DNA from: a virus | Strand: one strand, 5' to 3' | Virus genome (UHGV): UHGV-0339689 | Length of the DNA stretch: 22,812 bases | Part shown: positions 3,179 through 17,099 of the stretch, piece by piece | Position numbering within the stretch: position 1 is the stretch's first letter | Layout of the letters: each line of letters opens with the position of its first letter | The notes under the pieces: generated by a model | Seen by the model: only the letters and a program-made list of their open reading frames with translations | What the model was told of the DNA's origin: nothing | Databases searched by the model: none | Translations under genes and position numbers: made by a program

Positions 3179-3563
3179 TGCTGCCTCCGTGACTCTGCCT
3201 ACATTCGCCCAGCTCCGTACACTCCAGCAGCAGAAAGCGCCGCGCTCCGTTCAGATCGCGCTGACGTTTCACCCGGTACACACTGTCACCGCAGACCACC
3301 TCATAATCAGAGGTGATCCCCCGGCGGTAACGAATGGTGATGTAATGGGTGATGGCGTCTCCGGTCTGCGCGGTTTCCTGCCAGGTGGTGGCACTGGTCT
3401 GGATAACCTTCGCCCATGTACTGAACGCAACCGGGTATTGAGGCTCCACGCCAAAGTTATCTGCGGGCATATCCACCCGCTGGCGGATCAGGACGCGTTT
3501 ATTCAGTTCACCGGGGTCCGGCAGAATGTAGGTTGCGCTGGTCTGTGCCTGGCTAATTTTCAT
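3153..3563 (-). CDS. Head-tail adaptor / head closure protein
   Basis: 136-aa ORF following the gp6-like connector gene with 4-nt overlap; typical size and position. Confidence 0.6.
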   Translation of the reverse strand: MKISQAQTSATYILPDPGELNKRVLIRQRVDMPADNFGVEPQYPVAFSTWAKVIQTSATTWQETAQTGDAITHYITIRYRRGITSDYEVVCGDSVYRVKRQRDLNGARRFLLLECTELGECRQSHGGSNGDFLFAR

Positions 3564-3889
3564 TGCGGAAAGTACCTGTACGGGCTGACAAGCCAGCCAA
3601 AACTCTGCGGCATGTCGAGTTTCTCCACTTCCGTAACCGACGAGCGGTTTTCGTAAAAGTGGCTGATAAGCATCAGCATCCCAAGACGAATATCATCCGG
3701 CAGGTGCAGCCCGTCCGGATCGCTGTCCGGAATGGATTCATCCGGTGCATAGAGCTTCCGGTTCAGATACGTTTCCGTCCGCTTTTGCGCCGCACAGGCC
3801 AGCAGTTGCAGATGGCGGTCATCGGCATCGAAATCCTCATCCAGCCGGAGTTGGGCTTTAATCTCTTCCAGTGTCAGAAGCATTCTCAT
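3560..3889 (-). CDS. Head-tail connector protein (gp6-like)
   Basis: 109-aa acidic ORF MRMLLTLEEIKAQLRLDEDFDADD... with the usual position downstream of the major capsid gene. Confidence 0.7.
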   Translation of the reverse strand: MRMLLTLEEIKAQLRLDEDFDADDRHLQLLACAAQKRTETYLNRKLYAPDESIPDSDPDGLHLPDDIRLGMLMLISHFYENRSSVTEVEKLDMPQSFGWLVSPYRYFPQ

Positions 3890-4085
3890 CCCTCTTTACT
3901 GGCCGTGGCTTTTTCTCTTTTGCCGCTTTACTGCTTTTTGCACTGGTTCCGCGCTCTGCTAACCCGGCCTGAAGTGCAATCTCCTGCACCCGGGCAGGAA
4001 GCGCCCCGTCGTCATACTCACCGGCCCGAATGACCTCAACACGCATACCGTCCGGTGACCATTTAAGATCTTGTTTCAGGATCAT
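3858..4085 (-). CDS. Small hypothetical phage protein (75 aa)
   Basis: ORF starting 50 nt after capsid stop and after a GC hairpin; Lys/Ala-rich C-terminus. Confidence 0.4.
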   Translation of the reverse strand: MILKQDLKWSPDGMRVEVIRAGEYDDGALPARVQEIALQAGLAERGTSAKSSKAAKEKKPRPVKRDENASDTGRD

Positions 4086-4134
4086 GATTCTTCACCCTTC
4101 AGAACAGGGGGCGCGGAACCGCGCCCATGAGCGA

Positions 4135-5340
4135 TTACTTCTCTGCAATCTTCAGCAGTTTGATGGCCTGCGAATCGACCAGCATTCCGCCGGTGCGCTT
4201 GGTGGTATAAAAACCGACAAACGGTTTATTGGTGTACGGGTCACGCAGAATGCGGGTGCCGATACGGTCAACGATGGTGTAACCCCGTTTGAAGTTACCA
4301 AATGCGATGGCTTTCGCATCCGCAGCAATATCCGGCATCTGTTCGTTTTCAGCAATACCGTACCCCAGCAGAGAAGAAGGCTGCCCCAGTTCCAGCCCCG
4401 GACGCCACAGATAGTTACCCTCGTTGTCTTTCAACAGACGAATGGCAAACAGGCTGTTGTTGTTCATCATGAACTTCGCGCCAGTGCGGTGTGCCTTACG
4501 CAGCGTGTAAATCAGTTTGATAATGGCGTCTGCGGTCACCGCAGTCGCTTCGCCGGATACAATATGCTGAAGTTTGCCGAACGCCCGGACCTTATCGGTT
4601 TCATCAGTGGATTCATACGCCAGGAACCCTTTCGGCTTCTTGGTGCCATCGCCTGAGGTAAAGGCAATTTCTTCCTGTTCGGCAAATTCGGTTGCCAGCT
4701 CGCTGTTGATCCATGCTTCCACGTTGAAAAAGGCATCATCCAGCATTTTCTGGGTGGCCTGCGGGTTACCGTAGATTTCCCCCATGAAAGGTTCAATCAG
4801 GCCCAGTTTTGAGGTGGCAGTCTGGGAGCGCGCGTCAGTCTCGCCAACCCATCCGGAAGCCGTGCCGCCCAGATTCACCAGTTTTTTGTAGTCGGAACCA
4901 CCAATGGTGATCACCGTGGCTTCCTGACGCATCACCACTTCATCTTTCAGCAAGGTCAGAATGTTGCGATCCAGCGCTTCCGGCACGGCATAGCCGCCGT
5001 CTTCATCGGTGCCCACCTGTAATGCCTTGCGCTCCAGATCGCGCAGACCATCTTCACGGCCTTTACGCAGGAAGCCCACAAACGCTTCTTTATGCTCGGT
5101 GGTCAGTTTATTTTGCGCACCACCTGCCGGACGTTTCAGCTCAAGCAGCTCTTTTTCAAGATCGCTTTTGAGATTTTCCAGCTCGCTGAGTTTTCCGTTC
5201 AGGGTTTCCACCTGCCCGGCAAGTTTGCCTTTTTCCTGCTCAATCGCCTCAACGCGCTTGTCGTTCTTTGCTTTGAAGTCGTCAAACTTCTGCTGCAGCT
5301 CCTGCGCGACCTGTTCGACATCTTTAATATCAACCGCCAT
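4135..5340 (-). CDS. Major capsid protein, HK97 family
   Basis: 401-aa ORF with long N-terminal coiled-coil delta/scaffold-like domain (QELQQKFDDFKAKNDKRVEAIEQEKGKL...) then capsid domain; SD AGGAGA 6 nt upstream; follows protease gene. Confidence 0.9.
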   Translation of the reverse strand: MAVDIKDVEQVAQELQQKFDDFKAKNDKRVEAIEQEKGKLAGQVETLNGKLSELENLKSDLEKELLELKRPAGGAQNKLTTEHKEAFVGFLRKGREDGLRDLERKALQVGTDEDGGYAVPEALDRNILTLLKDEVVMRQEATVITIGGSDYKKLVNLGGTASGWVGETDARSQTATSKLGLIEPFMGEIYGNPQATQKMLDDAFFNVEAWINSELATEFAEQEEIAFTSGDGTKKPKGFLAYESTDETDKVRAFGKLQHIVSGEATAVTADAIIKLIYTLRKAHRTGAKFMMNNNSLFAIRLLKDNEGNYLWRPGLELGQPSSLLGYGIAENEQMPDIAADAKAIAFGNFKRGYTIVDRIGTRILRDPYTNKPFVGFYTTKRTGGMLVDSQAIKLLKIAEK

Positions 5341-5354
5341 CGTATTTCTCCTGA

Positions 5355-6041
5355 TTAGAAGTTCAGATTTTTCAGTGCATTCAGTGCAGAGCCCACATCC
5401 TCAGCGTCGCGCAGGGACAGTGCGCCATAGCCCCCGGCCATGAATGCTTTGGCCTGGGTACGGGAGAGTCCGACATCACGCAGGACTCTTTCGATTTTTT
5501 TCTGTTCGGGGATTTCCCCGCGGGCCAGTGCGTTCTTGACGTCGCTGATCCGCGCCTCGTCGTTAGACGGGAACGTCACCAGGCTGACTTCCCAGAGGTC
5601 GATTTCTTTCAGCAGAAAGGCTTCTTTGCTCCGGTCGTATTCCCAGTCTTTCAGGACGTACCCAATAGAAAGGCCGGTTAACGAACCGGCCTTCATGTGT
5701 GCATGTGCGCGTTTTGCGAGGGGATCATCATCAATAAGCAACCGTCCCCTGACGTAAAGCCCGACATCGTCTTCCTTCATTTCGGTGTAAACACCGATGG
5801 GTTCATCCATGCGGTGCTGCCAGAGCAGCGCAGGTAACGCTTTTCTGTCACTCCACGCCCGCAGGGAAGCAGCAAATGCCCCGGACATCACCACATCATC
5901 GTGGCTGTCCTTTACACCAAAGACGGAGCCATACCCTTCAAACTCACCGGAGTCACTGACAGATTTCAGACTCAGCGGTACATCAAGACGTTGTTTCGTC
6001 TGCATTGGCGTTATCCTTCTGCTTACCGGCTTTACTGCCAT
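5355..6041 (-). CDS. Prohead protease, HK97 family
   Basis: 228-aa ORF between portal and capsid; conserved gene order; start may be the internal ATG at 6005. Confidence 0.8.
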   Translation of the reverse strand: MAVKPVSRRITPMQTKQRLDVPLSLKSVSDSGEFEGYGSVFGVKDSHDDVVMSGAFAASLRAWSDRKALPALLWQHRMDEPIGVYTEMKEDDVGLYVRGRLLIDDDPLAKRAHAHMKAGSLTGLSIGYVLKDWEYDRSKEAFLLKEIDLWEVSLVTFPSNDEARISDVKNALARGEIPEQKKIERVLRDVGLSRTQAKAFMAGGYGALSLRDAEDVGSALNALKNLNF

Positions 6042-7224
6042 CGGAGGGTTTCGTGGTCATGTTCATCGGTGTGAGATAGACATCACCACCGGGTCGTGGA
6101 TTCATATCTTCCAGGTCGCGGCAGTCATTGGGAGAGTAAATTCCCCAGTTGATCCCGGTGGCGTAGGCTTCAAAACGGGACTTCATATCCCCGCGCAGTA
6201 ACGCCCCGGCGTTAAATTTGGCGTAATAAACGCCCTGCTTACTTTTTCGTACCAGTCCGGTGTTGATCCGCTGTTCGATGCGGGTCAGATACGGCACCAG
6301 TGAATAGTTGATAAATCCCAGCCCCAGCTCTTCGATATTGTTGAAGGTGGCGCGATCGGTGTTCTGCACCATGTGCAACGGCACCCGGAACAGACGACAG
6401 ATTTCTTCAAGCTGAAACTTGCGGGTTTCCAGGAACTGGCTGTCCTCGGCGTTCAGCGCCATCGACTTCCAGTCCAGCCCCATCTCAAGGATCATCGGGC
6501 GGTGAGCATTGCCAAGCCCGGTGTGACGCTCCTCAAAATCTTTCTTCAGGCGCTCATAAGCCTGATCTGACAGCGTCTGCTCTGTACGCAACACACCCGA
6601 CGTCACCGCGCCATTGCTGAACAGTCTGGCCCCGTGCTCTTCGGTCGCTGCCGCCAGCGATATTGCCTCGCGGGCATAGGCGATGGGATTCAGCCCCACC
6701 AGTCCGTCCAGCGTCAGCGTGCGCACATGCCAGATATCCTTCTGGCTCAGTACATCCGTGGAGCCATCCGGGAATGTGACCTGATAGACCGGCTCCCAGC
6801 TACTGTTAAGCTTCGGTACCACACAGCCGGGATCGACGGGCAGCAGTTCAGCCACTTCGCCAAATGCTTTCACTTTGTAGGCGTAAAAGTTTCCCCGCAG
6901 GCACAGACAGGTGACCACCAGCTCCCAGAACTCCTGCGGCGTCATATAGCCATTGGGATGCGTGGAGATCAGCTTATGCAGACGTTCGCCAGCGGCTCTC
7001 TGCTTCAGACTGCCGTTCAGGTGATACAGGTTGCAGGGCAACATCCCGACCGACTCCGCCAGCACCCTGACACAGGAAAAAACCGCCGTCAGTCGCATGG
7101 CCCGCTGGCTGCTGATCTGCTTTCCGGTATAGGTGTCGTAGGACAACCCGATAGCATCCGCCAGCTCTGCTGGCGTGGTCACCGGTGCGTCACTTTTTCG
7201 TTGAAATAATCCCGAAAAGAACAC
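5983..7224 (-). CDS. Portal protein, HK97 family
   Basis: 413-aa ORF downstream of terminase large subunit; size and order typical. Confidence 0.9.
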   Translation of the reverse strand: MFFSGLFQRKSDAPVTTPAELADAIGLSYDTYTGKQISSQRAMRLTAVFSCVRVLAESVGMLPCNLYHLNGSLKQRAAGERLHKLISTHPNGYMTPQEFWELVVTCLCLRGNFYAYKVKAFGEVAELLPVDPGCVVPKLNSSWEPVYQVTFPDGSTDVLSQKDIWHVRTLTLDGLVGLNPIAYAREAISLAAATEEHGARLFSNGAVTSGVLRTEQTLSDQAYERLKKDFEERHTGLGNAHRPMILEMGLDWKSMALNAEDSQFLETRKFQLEEICRLFRVPLHMVQNTDRATFNNIEELGLGFINYSLVPYLTRIEQRINTGLVRKSKQGVYYAKFNAGALLRGDMKSRFEAYATGINWGIYSPNDCRDLEDMNPRPGGDVYLTPMNMTTKPSDGSKAGKQKDNANADETTS

Positions 7225-7406
7225 TATTTACCTCCGCCGACAGACGACTGTGTACGGTCGAGATATCGCGCCACCAGCCACGACCAGAACAGACACAACG
7301 CCCCGGCAACAACAAACCCCGCCGGGGGATAAATCAGCCAGGCACCATACGCCAGCAAAAGCGCCCCCAGCACGCCCACCAGAGGCGCGAGAATCAGCAT
7401 GATCAT
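7224..7406 (-). CDS. Small two-helix membrane protein (60 aa)
   Basis: [49 protein letters not shown]...; two hydrophobic segments; stop overlaps portal start. Confidence 0.45.
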
Positions 7407-7417
7407 AATTACCTCAG

Positions 7418-9151
7418 TTAAAGCGAGCGGATCCCATAGGACTCAATGTGGTCAGACAGCGTGTCTTCTTTCTCGTACAGCATGGCTCTGCCAACCGCCA
7501 TAATCAGCGCAACTGCACCATCGATTTTGTTTTCCGCCTGCTCTTTGACGGGCTTCACTAAATCATCGTTACCCGGAATGGTTTTGCCGACCACATTGCC
7601 GATACACCAGGTCATGATGGGATTGCCGTCATGATGAAAGCGTCCCGATTCAATCGCTGCCTCCAGCTCTTTCATCGGGTCGGACATATTGGCGAAGTTC
7701 TGGACGATAGTAACGGGATTCAGGTCTTCATCAGCAAGGTCATGTGACAGCCCGGTCGCTCCGAAAGGGTCGATGGGTGACTCACTGACCGGGCTGATTT
7801 TGTTCGCCGCTTTGGCCTCTTCGAGGATGTAGCGATAATCCACCTCTGCACCATCGGTAACGGTCAGAACGCCCATTTCCACCCATTTCTGAAAGCGTTC
7901 GGCTGTCCGGCGATCTTCATTTTTCTCGACGCTGTACACCGTGTCATACGGTACCCAGAAACGCGGGGCCACACTGTAGTAATGCGTTTTACCGTCAATC
8001 TCGCGGGTATAAAGTCGCGCCATGCTGTTCATATCCAGCTTACGCGCCAGGTCAAAGGCCAGAATGCACGGCTGCCCCTCGAACTGCTCAAGAGTCAGTG
8101 ATTTATCCTCGCAGCTCTGCCAGCTCACCAGGTTGAAATACGCCGAACGCGCCGACACCCAGATATTGAGGTGTTTTGTTTTAAAGACGTTTGCCAGACG
8201 GGCGTTATTTTTCGCACGCTGCTGCTGACTTAACAAAAATTCGCGATAAACCGACACGCCAATATTTGGATTGGCTTTTTCCAGCACCTGCGGGTCGGTC
8301 CAGTCGTCACCTTCATCAACGGTATAGATGATCCCGAACAGTTCATCGTTAGGCACCGAGCCGTTGAGCATCTCGATGACTTCCCGCCGCTTGTCGTAGC
8401 ACGGCCCCTCAATGTTGTACCCGGCGGTGGTGATGGCCCACATCAGTGGCTGACGTCGCGCCCCCATCCCGGTAAGCATTGTGGTATAAAGCGCATCGGT
8501 GGCATGCTCGTGATATTCATCAACCACGGCACAGTGGGGTGATGAACCATCACCTGGGTTGCCGATCAGCGGTTCAAACCGCGCGCCATCCTCCGGACGG
8601 TTCATGTTTGAGGCGTTAACCTCAATCCCGAACGCTTCCGTCAGCATGGGTGTGCGTTTACACATCAGTCGCGCCGGGCGAAAGACTTCCCACGCCTGTT
8701 TCTCTGTCGTGGCACCGGAATACACTTCCGCGCCAAACTCGTTATCACAGGCAAAACAATACAGGGCAACACCGGCAGAGATTGCTGATTTGCCGTTCTT
8801 ACGGGGGATTTCGGTGTACACCTCCCGGAAGCGGCGCAACCGGGTGCCTTTATTGACCCAGCCAAACGCACAGCAGATCACAAATAGCTGCCACGGCTCC
8901 AGCGTGATGGGCATCCGTTTGAATGCCCACTCCCCCTTGGTGTGCGGCAACAGCTGAATAAATTTCGCGGCCCGTTCAGCCAGGTCCTTGTCGAAGCGGT
9001 AACGAAACGACTTACTTTTTTCCGCCATCAGGTCATCAAGATGGCGCTGGCAGGCCTGAATCACAAACTGGCAGGCAACAATCTTTCCGCGCACGACATC
9101 CCGGGCATACTGATTTGCAGCATTTACGTTGGGGTAAGATTTCCGGCTCAT
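7418..9151 (-). CDS. Terminase large subunit
   Basis: 577-aa ORF; ATGA overlap with small subunit stop; ATPase and nuclease-type size and order. Confidence 0.9.
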
Positions 9152-10284: not shown

Positions 10285-10509
10285 TTATTCTTTGCTGATT
10301 GCTTTCTGAATGGCATCGGCTAATGGTTCAATTAAGCCAATAGCTGCTTTTAATTCCTGTTCAAATTTTGCACTTGTAGCCTGACCACCTGCAGAAGAAA
10401 GTGAGGCCTTAACTAATTCAAGGGCAGCTTGAACAGCTATAACCCTCTGTTTTTGAGCTTGAGTTACAGGCTGAGCACCTATTCCTGAAGGGAAATAATT
10501 CTCTAACAT
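10285..10509 (-). CDS. Small Ala-rich hypothetical protein (74 aa), lower-GC moron
   Basis: SD GGAGGT 4 nt upstream of ATG; own terminator about 110 nt downstream; 267-bp AT-rich gap upstream. Confidence 0.5.
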   Translation of the reverse strand: MLENYFPSGIGAQPVTQAQKQRVIAVQAALELVKASLSSAGGQATSAKFEQELKAAIGLIEPLADAIQKAISKE

Positions 10510-10776
10510 TACAACCTCCGTATTAAAAAGTGAGGTTACACATTACCCTTAAGATTACTCTTAGTGAAGAGGTATCTCATAATTATCACCCTTACCAATA
10601 ACGCTTGATGAAATTTGTAATGGACTGGCTCTTATTTCAACGCAACCACTTACCGCGCGCCAGATGCTTAACCTCAAACATTAGCAATGAGATGTTTAAT
10701 CTGAATCCACTCCAGAAGTAATCACCACTCTGTCTACAGGGCCTGATGTGAAGGATGATGAGTAAAATTATCGCTA

Positions 10777-11238
10777 TCATCGAAGGCATTGCGTCCTGAT
10801 GTACTCCTGCAGGTAGTTAACCTGTGCGGTTATCCTGTCGATTCCACTTCGGAGACGGTAATAATTGAGTTCAGCATCTGCTGTAAGTCCTGGGCTTTCT
10901 CCATCGCCCATGCCGCTGGCTCTGGTCGTTGATTTTGCACAGGTGGCGGCGACTTGCAGGCGCTTACGCCCAGAAGAAACATCAGCACGGAGACTTTCGA
11001 TAGTCGCGTTAGCATCAGCAAGCTCCTTTGTGTATCTGGCGTCAAGTTCTGCTACGTCACGTTGACGCTTCTGCATATCAGAGATAGTCGCCATAGCCGA
11101 ATCTAATGCCATAGCATTCTCATCACGCTGCTTTTTGTATTCGATGGCTTTGCTGTGGTAATAATTTGCTGAACAGATAAAAGAACCAATGACAGTAACG
11201 AAGAATGCAGCGATAACCAGCTTATAGCTCAACTTCAT
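10777..11238 (-). CDS. Rz: Rz-type i-spanin
   Basis: 153 aa; N-terminal TM then coiled coil; strongly resembles remembered lambda Rz (QRDENA...DMQKRQRDVAELDARYTKELADA...). Confidence 0.85.
   Translation of the reverse strand: MKLSYKLVIAAFFVTVIGSFICSANYYHSKAIEYKKQRDENAMALDSAMATISDMQKRQRDVAELDARYTKELADANATIESLRADVSSGRKRLQVAATCAKSTTRASGMGDGESPGLTADAELNYYRLRSGIDRITAQVNYLQEYIRTQCLR
10830..11015 (-). CDS. Rz1: Rz1-type o-spanin lipoprotein embedded in Rz (+1 frame)
   Basis: MLTRLSKVSVLMFLLGVSAC lipobox signal then Pro-rich KSPPPVQNQRPEPAAW; SD AAGGAG 7 nt upstream of ATG at 11015; track ORF extends to a TTG at 11045. Confidence 0.65.
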   Translation of the reverse strand: MLTRLSKVSVLMFLLGVSACKSPPPVQNQRPEPAAWAMEKAQDLQQMLNSIITVSEVESTG

Positions 11239-11698
11239 TTACCACCCCGCCAGCCTCTTTGAATCGGGCAATCAGGTCACCGATTTTATGTTCATACTGA
11301 CCGTAACCAGCGCCCGGCAGTGAAGCCCAGATATTGCTGCAACGATCGATAGCCTGACGAATATCGCCGCGATCAATCATCGGTAAAGCGCCACGCTCTT
11401 TAATCTGCTGCAATGCCACAGCATCCTGGCTTTTTGGAGAGAAGTCTTTCAGCCCAAGCTGCTTGCGGTAAGCATCCCACCAGCGTGAAAGAAGTTGATA
11501 ACGGCCTGCAGCTGTTGATTTGAGTTTGGGGTTTAGCGTGACAAGTTTGCGAGGGTGATCGGAGTAATCAGTGAAGAGTTCACCACCGACAATAATATCA
11601 TAACCGTGGTTACGTGTCGGTTGTCGCCCGTTATCCGTTCCTTCTGACCATGCCACCATATCGAGGAAAGCTTTACGCTGAGGATTAAGATTTTGCAT
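11222..11698 (-). CDS. R: Endolysin, lambda R-type lytic transglycosylase
   Basis: 158 aa; near-identical over long stretches to remembered lambda R (NQRKAFLDM.AWSEGTDNGRQ.TRNHGYD.IVGGELFTDYSDHPRKLVTLNPKLKST). Confidence 0.9.
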   Translation of the reverse strand: MQNLNPQRKAFLDMVAWSEGTDNGRQPTRNHGYDIIVGGELFTDYSDHPRKLVTLNPKLKSTAAGRYQLLSRWWDAYRKQLGLKDFSPKSQDAVALQQIKERGALPMIDRGDIRQAIDRCSNIWASLPGAGYGQYEHKIGDLIARFKEAGGVVNEVEL

Positions 11699-12089
11699 TT
11701 TTCACCCCTGTCAGTCGTTCCCAGAAGTACGTCAGTGCAACCGAACCCATCGCACCACTAATCCCCGCTGTCGCGAGAATCATGTAAATACTGAATCCAC
11801 TTTCGATGCTGATCAGGCCACCAATAACACCGGTGAATCCTGATACCACTATCTGAGCCAGAGCATTTATCCAACACCACGTTGCTTTACTCTGCTTCAC
11901 ATCTATCAGGTAGCGGACCAGACCGCCCCAACCTGCGATGATCAGCAAAACGAGCCAGAACGCTCCAGCAAGATTCTCTTTTTCGTGCATATGAATAGCC
12001 GCAGTTTCGCCTCCGACAGAAAATCGGAGCGTGAAATGATATGTTGATTTATTATTAATTCGAAAATTACATTCTAATTCATCAGGCAT
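11685..12089 (-). CDS. Putative holin (start uncertain; core begins near MHEKENLAGAFWLVLLII)
   Basis: Hydrophobic segments, immediately upstream of and overlapping the endolysin gene; N-terminal 30 codons AT-rich and lacking SD. Confidence 0.6.
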   Translation of the reverse strand: MPDELECNFRINNKSTYHFTLRFSVGGETAAIHMHEKENLAGAFWLVLLIIAGWGGLVRYLIDVKQSKATWCWINALAQIVVSGFTGVIGGLISIESGFSIYMILATAGISGAMGSVALTYFWERLTGVKNAKS

Positions 12090-12107
12090 TGATGATTTTA
12101 TAATAAT

Positions 12108-12130
12108 AAAGGCCGTTCGTTACGGCCTTT
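12108..12130 (-). terminator. Hairpin, possible partial terminator after moron gene
   Basis: AAAGGCCG-TTCGTTA-CGGCCTTT followed on minus strand by ATTATTAT. Confidence 0.35.
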
Positions 12131-12141
12131 ATTATTGATAT

Positions 12142-12477
12142 TTATTTTACATCCCAAGGTAGTTCCTCAAGAGAGAAGACTAATTCATTATCAATGATTT
12201 CGTATTCTGCATAACCTTCAACCTCTCCTGAGAAGTTATTGTCAACGCATCCTTCATAATAGCTATATGGTGCTATAAAGTGAAACCCATATTCATCTAT
12301 CTCTGTGATTTCAAAATTGTAGTAATCGTAAGAATATCGAATATCATCATCAGAAATAGAACTAAGTACATAGTTATTAAATTTATCGGAATGCTTAACG
12401 ATAAGCTCTGACAACGCGTCAAGATTCTCTGGAGAGATATTTCCTAACGGTAATCTGTACTCAACGGCATTAATCAT
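12142..12477 (-). CDS. Acidic Tyr-rich hypothetical protein (111 aa), low-GC late-region moron
   Basis: SD AGGAGG 4 nt upstream of ATG; about 24 Asp+Glu versus 5 Lys+Arg; no hydrophobic segment; sits between tR' and the holin. Confidence 0.7.
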   Translation of the reverse strand: MINAVEYRLPLGNISPENLDALSELIVKHSDKFNNYVLSSISDDDIRYSYDYYNFEITEIDEYGFHFIAPYSYYEGCVDNNFSGEVEGYAEYEIIDNELVFSLEELPWDVK

Positions 12478-12530
12478 ACAACCTCCTTTTTAACTGATAT
12501 GAGGTTATATAATGTGTTTCAGTACAAGTA

Positions 12531-12556
12531 AATAAAAACCCGCTCAACAGCGGGTT
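12531..12556 (-). terminator. tR'-like intrinsic terminator downstream of late promoter
   Basis: Hairpin AACCCGC-TCAACA-GCGGGTT followed on minus strand by TTTTTATT. Confidence 0.65.
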
Positions 12557-12602
12557 CGTGAAAATTATCAACGGCAGACATACAAAGCCCATCGTTGAGA
12601 AA

Positions 12603-12631
12603 ATCTTATCCATATTTTTTGAAAAATGCAA
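12603..12631 (-). promoter_or_regulatory. Candidate late promoter PR' (minus strand -35 TTGCAT, 17 bp, -10 TAAGAT)
   Basis: Hexamers read on minus strand at 12631-12626 and 12608-12603, directly downstream of the Q stop (12663). Confidence 0.5.
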
Positions 12632-12662: not shown

Positions 12663-13415
12663 TTATCTCGTCACCTTTCTCAATTGCGTTTCAGCATATG
12701 CTTCTTCCTGCCAGCACTTTGTTACTAGTTTATCAATTACGTCTGCATATCCTTTGTACCACTGATAATCAGTCAGGTCTGGAACCAGCTTCTGGACATG
12801 ACGTCGTGCCAGTGTAGTTGGTAAACGGCTAAACCGGTTTCCATTGCAACGCCCACAAATCTTATAAACAGGCGTGCCATGAAGCCGGGTCCTTTTTTCA
12901 TCCAGGACAATACCTTTACCCTTACACCCTCTGCACGCTGTGCTGACTTCTCCCTTACCATGACAATGCTGACATAGTTCCTTCACCCACTCTTCCTTGA
13001 TAACAGATTCCCCGCTTCTGGAGTGTTTCACCACCTCGCGCAATACATTATGAAATCCAGTACCAGCACAATGCTCACAGCGAGCCTTACTTGCCGCAGA
13101 CCTGGAATAATCAGCAAAGGCAAAATTCACAAGGTAAGGAATGATCTGTAGCCGGGTTTCTTCACTCAATTTATTCAATGTCGGGTTATCCAGTGCCATC
13201 GCGTAATTGAGCAGACCTTCAATCGCAAACTGAGGATCCTGAACACCAACTTTTGCCAGGAATAAGGCAAACCCAAGCGGTGCTTTCGACTGCACCATCC
13301 CCTGCGCAGCCATCACATCCGTAATCGTTAAACCACCAGAGCCTGTCGCCGGTGCGTCATCGCTCAGTTTTGGAGATTTCGGGGAGTAATATTTCGGTAA
13401 GGCTTCAAGGTTCAT
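12663..13415 (-). CDS. Q: Late-gene antitermination protein Q (phage 82/21-type, zinc-binding)
   Basis: 250 aa with Cys clusters (CEHCAGTG, CQHCHGKG, CRGCKGKG, CGRCNG); positioned immediately upstream of PR'/tR' and lysis cassette. Confidence 0.8.
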   Translation of the reverse strand: MNLEALPKYYSPKSPKLSDDAPATGSGGLTITDVMAAQGMVQSKAPLGFALFLAKVGVQDPQFAIEGLLNYAMALDNPTLNKLSEETRLQIIPYLVNFAFADYSRSAASKARCEHCAGTGFHNVLREVVKHSRSGESVIKEEWVKELCQHCHGKGEVSTACRGCKGKGIVLDEKRTRLHGTPVYKICGRCNGNRFSRLPTTLARRHVQKLVPDLTDYQWYKGYADVIDKLVTKCWQEEAYAETQLRKVTR

Positions 13416-15955: not shown

Positions 15956-16605
15956 GCCGCCATCTCCCTGACCAGTTTTTCCGCCTGCTGGCGAACCTGC
16001 GCCAGAAAGGCCTCACCACATGCCTCAAGTTCATCGCGCCCGATGTAGCTGATTGCCGGTCCCTTCCAGGTCTTGTCGAAAACAGCAATAGCACCAGCGA
16101 AGAAAGCGCCTGTCGGTACCTGCTTCTCGTCTTTCGGGATAAACCAGACAGGCAGTTCAAAACCAATACGCCCGCGAATAAAAGCAATATGATCTGCATT
16201 TTCCGGCCACCACACTTCGCTGGTGGCAGCTTTGATCAGGAAAACATAGCGCCCGCCTTTATCACGCATGGCACTGGCATGCTTCATGATGTAACGCATG
16301 CCGGTGATGTATTGCCCCTCATGCTGACTGGCGCGGCTGTATGGGGGATTACCAAAGGCAGCACCTTTAAGCTCCGCAAGACGTTCTGACCAGTCATGCG
16401 CCAGCGCGTTGTCTTCCGCCGTGTAATACGCGGCACATTTGGCGTTATCACCGTCAGTGAACAGATCCAGAACAAACGGGCCAAACAGGGTGTTAATTCC
16501 CCAGAAAATGTTGTCCGGCGTGCGCCACTGATCGCCCACTTCCTTCAGTTCATGGGCTGGTTTGTTCCGCAGTTCCACCAGCGCCTGGCAATATTTATTA
16601 CTCAT
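15952..16605 (-). CDS. Phage Dam-type N6-adenine DNA methyltransferase
   Basis: NPPY motif (AAFGNPPYS); track ORF starts at GTG 16638, but the ATG at 16605 shares a TAATG junction with the upstream gene. Confidence 0.8.
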   Translation of the reverse strand: MSNKYCQALVELRNKPAHELKEVGDQWRTPDNIFWGINTLFGPFVLDLFTDGDNAKCAAYYTAEDNALAHDWSERLAELKGAAFGNPPYSRASQHEGQYITGMRYIMKHASAMRDKGGRYVFLIKAATSEVWWPENADHIAFIRGRIGFELPVWFIPKDEKQVPTGAFFAGAIAVFDKTWKGPAISYIGRDELEACGEAFLAQVRQQAEKLVREMAA

Positions 16606-17099
16606 TAAGCCCCCACGTAATTCCCTGACAGATACCACTCTTCACCCGATGCAGCGCGCTTGCTGCTTTTCCGTAAGCACCGCTCACGACGCGCCAGAAA
16701 ATTGTTTCGCTCTTGCTGGGAGTGGCTTTCACGGAATGCCGCCATCCACACCGTTGCAGCACGACGGTATAAGCCCCTGGACTCCAGTTCTTCCGCCTGG
16801 CGGGTCAGGCACAAAATCTCCCGCGGGTCGTTAGTGCCGACATAGAAATTGCGCACAGGTCTGGTTTCACGAACTGGTTGCGGTTCCGCCTCCTGCGCTC
16901 TCTCAGTCAGGCGCGGGAAATGTCTGCGTGTATCCCCTTCACAACGGTGAGCCACACGACCACTCTGACGTAACTTGCTTGCTGACTGCAGAACGCGCTG
17001 CCGTGAGTAACCTGCAAAAGCATCCGCAATGTCTCCGGAAGTACACCCCGGATGGGCTTCAATGTATTTCTGAACTTCATTCAAAAGACTCATGATCAC
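16605..17099 (-). CDS. PerC/ANR-like transcriptional regulator
   Basis: 164 aa; LESRGLYRRAATVWMAA motif as remembered for PerC-family proteins; basic C-terminus. Confidence 0.5.
   Translation of the reverse strand: MIMSLLNEVQKYIEAHPGCTSGDIADAFAGYSRQRVLQSASKLRQSGRVAHRCEGDTRRHFPRLTERAQEAEPQPVRETRPVRNFYVGTNDPREILCLTRQAEELESRGLYRRAATVWMAAFRESHSQQERNNFLARRERCLRKSSKRAASGEEWYLSGNYVGA

Follow-up and report, generated by a model that had tools for sequence, protein, structure and literature searches.

Gene organization of the late control region

The window, i.e., the whole stretch of 22,812 nucleotides of viral DNA that was analysed, is a lambdoid prophage with an HK97-type head. Along the minus strand, its genes are arranged in the order RusA, KilA-N, DUF968/HNH, Q, a 185-bp leader, a 111-codon open reading frame (ORF), holin, GH24 endolysin, Rz, small ORFs, HNH and terminase. 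The 111-codon ORF (12142-12477, minus strand, ATG to stop) is the subject of this report; its product has the RefSeq accession WP_000606308.1 and falls into family phrog_13663. The window is identical to a prophage in E. coli ECONIH4, where this ORF is annotated as 'hypothetical protein'.

Upstream of the leader lies the gene of a 250-aa Q antiterminator (12663-13415, minus strand; PF03589 Antiterm, E 3.8e-54; phrog_127, E 5e-109; 'antitermination protein' in RefSeq). A candidate late promoter PR' can be read from the leader as TTGCAT-N17-TAAGAT (12603-12631, minus strand); it is a weak match to the consensus (7 of 12 positions) and was not reported by a promoter scan of the region. In thousands of E. 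coli genomes the Q-linked segment that holds this candidate is preserved up to approximately 12523-12537, with 87-95% identity. Downstream of the candidate is a tR'-type intrinsic terminator (12528-12557, minus strand), whose hairpin (12557-12536) consists of a 9-bp stem with five G-C pairs and a 4-nt loop, ends in a T-tract and has a dG of -14.9 kcal/mol. The ORF lies downstream of this tR' hairpin, where an earlier note on this DNA had placed it. If transcribed, the PR'-to-tR' stretch (~12530-12600, minus strand) would yield a terminated RNA about 65-70 nt long that folds into two hairpins (dG -25.9); lambda 6S RNA and the StxS sRNA belong to this class as well. No Rfam match was found for this RNA, and Rfam and tRNA scans across the region yielded nothing significant.

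Just 3' of the ORF is a strong, symmetrical intrinsic terminator of the bidirectional type (12101-12137), with 16 pairs by a scan that allows G-T pairs and 15 pairs by RNAfold (dG -20.2); A/T tracts flank the hairpin on both sides. The first gene of the lysis cassette encodes a 101-aa LydA-type holin (11685-11990, minus strand; PF16083, E 1.5e-20; phrog_785), with the RefSeq start at 11990. As called mechanically, the holin ORF has 33 extra codons before this start (11991-12089, minus strand), and since profile matches begin only at residue 34, the extension from 12089 is probably spurious or untranslated. Within the same lysis cassette, an Rz1-type o-spanin ORF (10830-11015, minus strand) lies out of frame inside Rz; it starts MLTRLSKVSVLMFLLGVSAC, with a lipobox, and RefSeq leaves it unannotated in the identical prophage.

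Composition of the ORF and its product

The 111-aa protein (13.0 kDa, computed pI ~4.05) contains 14 Glu and 10 Asp, in agreement with the approximately 24 acidic and 5 basic residues given in the earlier note, the basic ones being 3 Lys and 2 Arg. With a net charge of -0.17 per residue it is more acidic than the product of any other window ORF of 90 aa or longer, the next being at -0.09. No transmembrane segment was found in the protein (the highest Kyte-Doolittle 19-residue mean is 0.59) and no signal peptide either, as residues 1-10 include one basic residue and no hydrophobic run. A Shine-Dalgarno sequence, AAGGAGGT (12481-12488, minus strand), is separated from the ATG by 3 nt. The GC content of the ORF is 0.34, compared with 0.51 for the whole window, and its GC3 is 0.30 vs 0.44-0.64 in the adjoining genes; since GC3 is also below that of the neighbours, the low GC does not stem purely from the amino-acid composition, that is, from D/E/N/Y/I codons. 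The lack of a signal peptide or transmembrane segment, the strong Shine-Dalgarno sequence and the low GC, all named in the earlier note, are thereby borne out.

A small family in the Enterobacterales

Family phrog_13663 is matched by the protein with an E-value of 9.4e-54, residues 1-111 aligning with profile positions 1-111 of 111, and is the sole PHROG matched in 25 of 25 relatives. This small Enterobacterales family, in which the protein stands for E. coli, is labelled 'unknown function' in PHROGs and 'hypothetical' in all sources. A word-indexed search retrieved only close relatives, from Salmonella and Citrobacter. When 1.84 billion representatives were searched exhaustively with a profile, 26 clusters were returned at E <=1e-3, nearly all of 106-118 aa, and a further profile search extended the set to Enterobacter, Erwinia, Duffyella and an unclassified Erwiniaceae genome. 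The homologues are full-length and share 25-72% identity. Scans of the protein against Pfam, NCBIfam and PADLOC, the last down to E <=1, gave no match, and 25 family members searched against Pfam at E <=1 gave scattered single matches only, with no Pfam domain or name among them; a sub-threshold Pfam match to NIR_SIR_ferr (E 0.016) was not common to the relatives and was dropped. Sequence searches of the PDB, using either the single protein or the family profile, returned noise only, to which we also assign the matches to IpgC (E 0.2) and a surface-anchored protein (E 0.18). No related loci were found in genome contigs sought with the single protein, and no papers were found on WP_000606308 or phrog_13663.

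In an alignment of 25 sequences, F33, D45, R47, Y48, G76, C77 and W108 are invariant and L38, F55 and E105 are conserved in at least 90% of members. When the alignment is widened to 42 sequences, only F33 and C77 remain fully invariant; Y48, W108, D45, G76, F55, D104 and E105 are kept in 90-98% and R47 and D79 in 81%. All 44 of 44 members have a net charge between -9 and -22 (median -16); at about -16 per 110 residues, the family as a whole carries an extreme charge. The earlier note had also called the protein Tyr-rich. This holds for the protein itself, with its 12 Tyr, but not for the family, in which members contain 3-12 Tyr (median 6), so the enrichment is lineage-specific. The sum of Y, F and W is steady at about 14-15. 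Given the constant charge and aromatic sum, acidity and aromatic richness are traits of the family, and Tyr-richness is not.

Purifying selection is evident from a dN/dS of 0.13 between the Enterobacter locus L002 and locus L013 (dS 0.82), and of 0.11 between two chromosomal orphan copies, for which dS (~2.1) is near saturation. The AT-rich DNA and the absence of an annotated function would be compatible with a chance ORF in an AT-rich spacer. However, this explanation has a negligible probability, being refuted by the homologues at 25-72% identity, the dN/dS of 0.11-0.13, a confident AlphaFold2 (AF2) fold and the strong Shine-Dalgarno sequence. Full-length homologues down to ~25% identity, together with these dN/dS values, show that the ORF is more than chance, and that WP_000606308.1 is encoded by a real gene under selection.

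A mobile cassette in the Q-to-holin slot

Comparison of related prophages shows that the interval between Q and holin is a variable cargo slot and that the cassette within it is modular. Prophages with the same Q align with the window only to 12523-12537, just beyond the tR' hairpin, and carry other cargo thereafter; in E. coli this consists of a 67-aa ORF and a DNA methyltransferase, or of a 176-aa ORF, a 64-aa ORF and a methyltransferase. Homology to an O157 prophage with the same holin extends only up to 12038, and in that prophage Q is followed directly by holin, the slot being empty. These comparisons support the placement of the ORF in a Q-holin cargo slot, proposed in the earlier note. 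The IMG/VR contig L023 encodes a 69%-identical homologue in a setting where neither Q nor the lysis genes are those of the window: its Q is a 193-aa protein similar to the DUF1133-type Q of L002, and its lysis genes encode a 71-aa holin and an apparent SAR endolysin (all three unscanned). The sole DNA common to L023 and the window is 12105-12556 (minus strand), which aligns by blastn at 68% identity over 466 columns, from hairpin to hairpin. Since nothing else is shared, this segment is a mobile unit of 452 bp.

The best explanation for the segment 12105-12556 is a self-contained moron cassette, composed of the tR' hairpin as its upstream border, a promoter-like element, a strong Shine-Dalgarno sequence, the 111-codon ORF and a strong terminator. 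In this dusA-integrating E. coli prophage it comes immediately behind the late-promoter leader. The gene lies between genes that are adjacent in a related phage (the O157 prophage, with breakpoints at 12038 and 12523-12537). It has its own terminator, the 12101-12137 hairpin, which is kept 11-26 nt past the stop in seven other loci (L023, L002, L013, L030, L007, L032 and L028). Its base composition is unlike that of its flanks, the GC content being 0.32-0.40 in the relatives vs 0.47-0.51. An upstream terminator hairpin is likewise found 80-105 nt before the homologue in L023, L002, L013, L030 and L007.

The motif TTTTTTCATTTCTG occurs directly 3' of cassette-border hairpins, upstream of the gene in L002, L013, L030, L007 and L008 and at 5377-5390 in L023. 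Modules in the slot may be exchanged by recombination at this motif.

Genomic contexts across the family

Of 13 distinct contexts, 10 have the gene between Q and holin, where L008/L009 and L010/L011 are taken as two contexts and the window is included in the ten. A Q of the PF03589 type accompanies holin PF16083 in the window and holin PF16931 in L013. Holin PF16931 is also present in L002 with a DUF1133/PF06530 Q, in L030 with a DUF1133 Q, and in the Salmonella loci L010/L011 with a PF06530 Q, followed in the latter by a 1.4-kb stretch without a called gene downstream. The Citrobacter loci L008/L009 combine a PF06530 Q with holin PF16080, L032 an HNH_3+DUF1133 Q with holin PF16083, and the Duffyella locus L007 a Q without an assigned family with holin PF04971. 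In all, four Q types (PF03589, PF06530, DUF1133 and the one without an assigned family) are represented, along with the holin types PF16083, PF16931+PF05449, PF04971/PF16080 and the unscanned 71-aa holin that stands beside the apparent SAR endolysin. It is unusual for a gene to keep its place so faithfully through four Q types and several lysis cassettes. No toxin gene adjoins the family gene in any of the 13 contexts, and no conserved partner gene was seen across them.

The three remaining copies are chromosomal orphans, one near sbcB (L012), one near dsbB/fadR (L028) and one in a degraded prophage of Erwinia tracheiphila (L004). The purifying selection on orphan copies suggests that the gene has a function independent of the lytic cycle.

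In L008/L009 and L010/L011 the family gene is part of a larger cargo island (~3400-7600). These islands contain two to three opposite-strand genes (140 aa, 289 aa and, where called, 69 aa) and small ORFs of 82 aa (where called) and 63 aa, and in L008/L009 an N6_N4 DNA methyltransferase gene comes after the family gene. The layout resembles a non-contiguous operon, and the island may be a defence or counter-defence island.

Occurrence in E. coli

The cassette was detected in 132 of 5,426 complete E. coli genomes (~2.4%), almost all at an identity of at least 99%. Among the carriers are IHE3034 and the type strain ATCC 11775, as well as isolates whose labels name them as APEC, UPEC or of cerebrospinal-fluid origin. 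A tblastn search of 50,697 GenBank phage records gave no match to the 111-aa protein. A search of plasmids gave a single match, to a 37.7-kb circular record of E. coli CX04 (NZ_CP081716.1, 1-37667) that turned out to be an entire phage genome, with an integrase adjoining a dusA fragment, an HK97-type head, a contractile tail and a baseplate. The presence of a whole phage as a circular record of 37.7 kb, with its integrase beside a dusA fragment, indicates that the prophage excises, and NZ_CP081716.1 is presumably its excised circular form; the many frameshifts in this record suggest assembly errors. The early region of the window also encodes a PerC-family transcriptional regulator (16605-17099, minus strand), and the prophage is carried by several ExPEC-type strains.

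Predicted structure

AF2 modelled the protein with a pLDDT of 74 from a four-sequence alignment, and with a pLDDT of 86 and a pTM of 0.78 from 25 sequences. The predicted fold is a compact alpha+beta roll consisting of b1 (3-10), a1 (19-28), a2 (30-41) and an antiparallel meander of strands b2-b6 (48-105), for which NTF2-like, VirB8-like and cystatin-like alpha+beta rolls are candidate counterparts. On strands b3-b6 the mostly acidic alignment columns 56, 66, 91, 93, 95, 102 and 104 alternate with hydrophobic ones, a pattern that points to an acidic outer face of the sheet. The near-invariant residues are found in three loop segments, D45-x-R47-Y48, G76-C77-x-D79 and L103-D104-E105-x-x-W108. 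Judging from the strand topology of the model, these segments (45-48, 76-79 and 103-108) should meet at one end of the sheet.

Probable own promoter and Q-dependence

A candidate promoter of the gene itself, TTTACT-N15-TATATA or, alternatively, N17-TATAAC, was recognized at 12504-12532 (minus strand) through its positional conservation. The window and L023 have TTTAC(T/A)-N15-TATATA(AC) at an equivalent position, the L023 version reading TTTACA ... TATATAAC, and the spacer between the hexamers has diverged. Likewise, six subfamily-B loci from different genera have an (A-tract)-TTGACA-N15-TA(T/G/A)(G/A/C)(C/A)T element between the upstream hairpin and the Shine-Dalgarno sequence, again with divergent spacers. 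Hexamers that are kept in place while spacers diverge are the footprint expected of a promoter, and it is probable that the ORF has a promoter of its own. The promoter scan, which required spacers of 16-18 bp, did not report this candidate, whose 15-bp spacer is atypical.

The earlier note had proposed that the gene is expressed only on Q-dependent late transcription. This is doubtful for a moron with a promoter-like element and terminators. The flanking terminators, the deviant composition, the insertion between otherwise adjacent genes and the selected orphans together identify a moron and argue against Q-only expression. A contribution of Q is nonetheless to be expected on top of this. In lambda biology, Q-modified RNA polymerase passes terminators and strong expression follows induction, and given that the gene is downstream of a tR'-type terminator, Q-modified polymerase would read through into it.

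Morons in the sense of Juhala and Hendrix are well known in lambdoid phages, e.g., HK97 gp15 and lambda bor and lom. Like these, the gene described here is a lone accessory gene between otherwise adjacent genes, with deviant composition, a terminator and an apparent (putative) promoter of its own; unlike them, it encodes a cytoplasmic acidic product rather than an envelope or virulence protein. Other cargo of the same slot includes cspB/cspF in Qin and nmpC in DLP12. In Stx phages, stx is the cargo of the slot from Q through PR' and tR' to holin (PMC6266700). Location in the slot of stx implies that massive Q-dependent read-through would occur on induction. In contrast to stx, cspB/cspF and nmpC, the product of this gene has no signal peptide, is not a toxin and shares no homology with them, and the retention of one slot across Q and lysis families by phrog_13663 is unusual among slot cargo. 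The element is of a known kind, a moron in a known cargo slot, and the family already exists, unnamed, in PHROGs.

Possible functions of the acidic protein

The reading that we favour, with a probability of about 0.4 for the class and a much lower one for any single target, is that the protein takes part in conflict between phage and host or between phages, binding a basic, probably nucleic-acid-binding, protein stoichiometrically or serving as its decoy. According to this model, a soluble cytoplasmic protein would bind and neutralize its positively charged, probably nucleic-acid-binding, partner stoichiometrically. It would be produced at a low level in the lysogen from its own putative promoter, and massively once Q lets RNA polymerase pass both terminators. 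The decoy reading is the simplest account of a compact, consistently acidic protein with one conserved loop cluster, a mobile cassette heading the late operon, the lack of a partner gene and the retention of the gene in phage-free cells. Against it count the PADLOC, Pfam, NCBIfam and PDB searches, which gave no homology to a protein of known function, the lack of a conserved partner gene across contexts, and the poor power of acidity, taken by itself, to predict DNA mimicry. We also count towards a role in conflict the orphan N6_N4 DNA methyltransferase encoded directly downstream of the family gene in L008/L009, which we presume to have an anti-restriction function. A more specific version would make phrog_13663 a new class of acidic decoys, locked to the first position of the late operon and neutralizing a DNA-binding immune or nuclease protein of the host or of a rival phage at late onset, with low-level expression in lysogens and from orphans also benefiting the cell; this version is possible, if on balance rather improbable.

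Several other functions must be weighed against the decoy reading. The earlier note had suggested a DNA mimic from composition, and of this suggestion the strong net negative charge stands while a likeness to Ocr or ArdA does not. The protein does resemble Ocr (T7 gp0.3) and ArdA in being small, very acidic (~22% D+E), cytoplasmic and borne by a phage or mobile element, the gene lies downstream of a tR'-type hairpin, and an orphan DNA methyltransferase occupies the slot of relatives. Yet it differs in being an alpha+beta roll with no sequence or fold match to either protein, and in belonging to the late operon rather than being first-expressed. A strictly late, Q-dependent anti-restriction protein of the Ocr/ArdA type is very unlikely. 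An orphan immunity protein that guards the lysogen against a basic nuclease-type bacteriocin, CDI or Rhs toxin would fit the size, cytoplasmic location and acidity of the product as well as its model, a generic NTF2/cystatin-like roll of a kind that also occurs among immunity families. Chromosomal orphans kept under selection and the lysogen expression implied by the moron architecture would be explained too. However, no toxin, CdiA, Rhs or colicin gene adjoins the gene in the 13 contexts, no Pfam Imm family was matched by 25 members at E <=1, and the tight link to the Q-holin slot would be left unexplained, which makes this alternative quite unlikely. The comparison with immunity proteins that the earlier note had recommended thus came out negative, with no match to Imm, CdiI or colicin-immunity families in the Pfam scan of 25 members and no toxin neighbour in the 13 contexts.

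The invariant polar and aromatic residues might instead line a pocket, making the protein a small-molecule binder (an immune-signal sponge) or a small enzyme, which we also regard as very unlikely. A lysis-timing factor of the lysis cassette, such as a holin regulator or chaperone, might be suspected because the gene is immediately upstream of holin in most loci. It is contradicted on many counts: an intrinsic terminator separates the gene from holin, the gene is found with at least four unrelated holin types, the protein has no transmembrane segment (maximum 19-residue hydropathy 0.59), orphan copies exist without any holin, a related prophage with the same holin lacks the gene, and in L008/L009 a methyltransferase gene intervenes between it and holin. 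This role is therefore highly improbable. A secreted toxin and an antiholin or lysis regulator were likewise considered for the 111-aa protein and rejected.

Phage phi80 offers a known case of a counter-defence protein encoded in the Q operon, AtiEcA, which neutralizes the prophage's own TaiEcA, and the TaiSalB-AtiSalB pair is reported to act by protein binding (PMC11364771). Like AtiEcA, the protein described here is a small accessory product of a Q-controlled operon in a lambdoid prophage. Unlike the Ati type, its gene is at the start of the operon and not upstream of the packaging module. There is no divergent cognate defence gene beside the ORF and no opposite-strand gene between Q and holin in the window; opposite-strand genes are confined to the L008-L011 islands.

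The slot between Q and holin is the site of the most consequential cargo of lambdoid phages, Shiga toxin, and a gene family that holds to just this place through different genera, Q types and lysis cassettes is a good candidate for having a new function in conflict, be it counter-defence, exclusion or immunity. At present it is an uncharacterized moron, the value of which is that of a well-delimited, easily testable cassette of 452 bp in a prophage that excises.

A second cargo-like pair of genes is located between Rz and HNH/terminase on the minus strand (10285-10509 and 10637-10789), and comprises a 74-aa ORF (phrog_5901, unknown function, GC3 0.23) and a 50-aa ORF. Its position (10285-10789) is equivalent to that in which phi80 carries Tai/Ati, upstream of the packaging module (PMC11364771).
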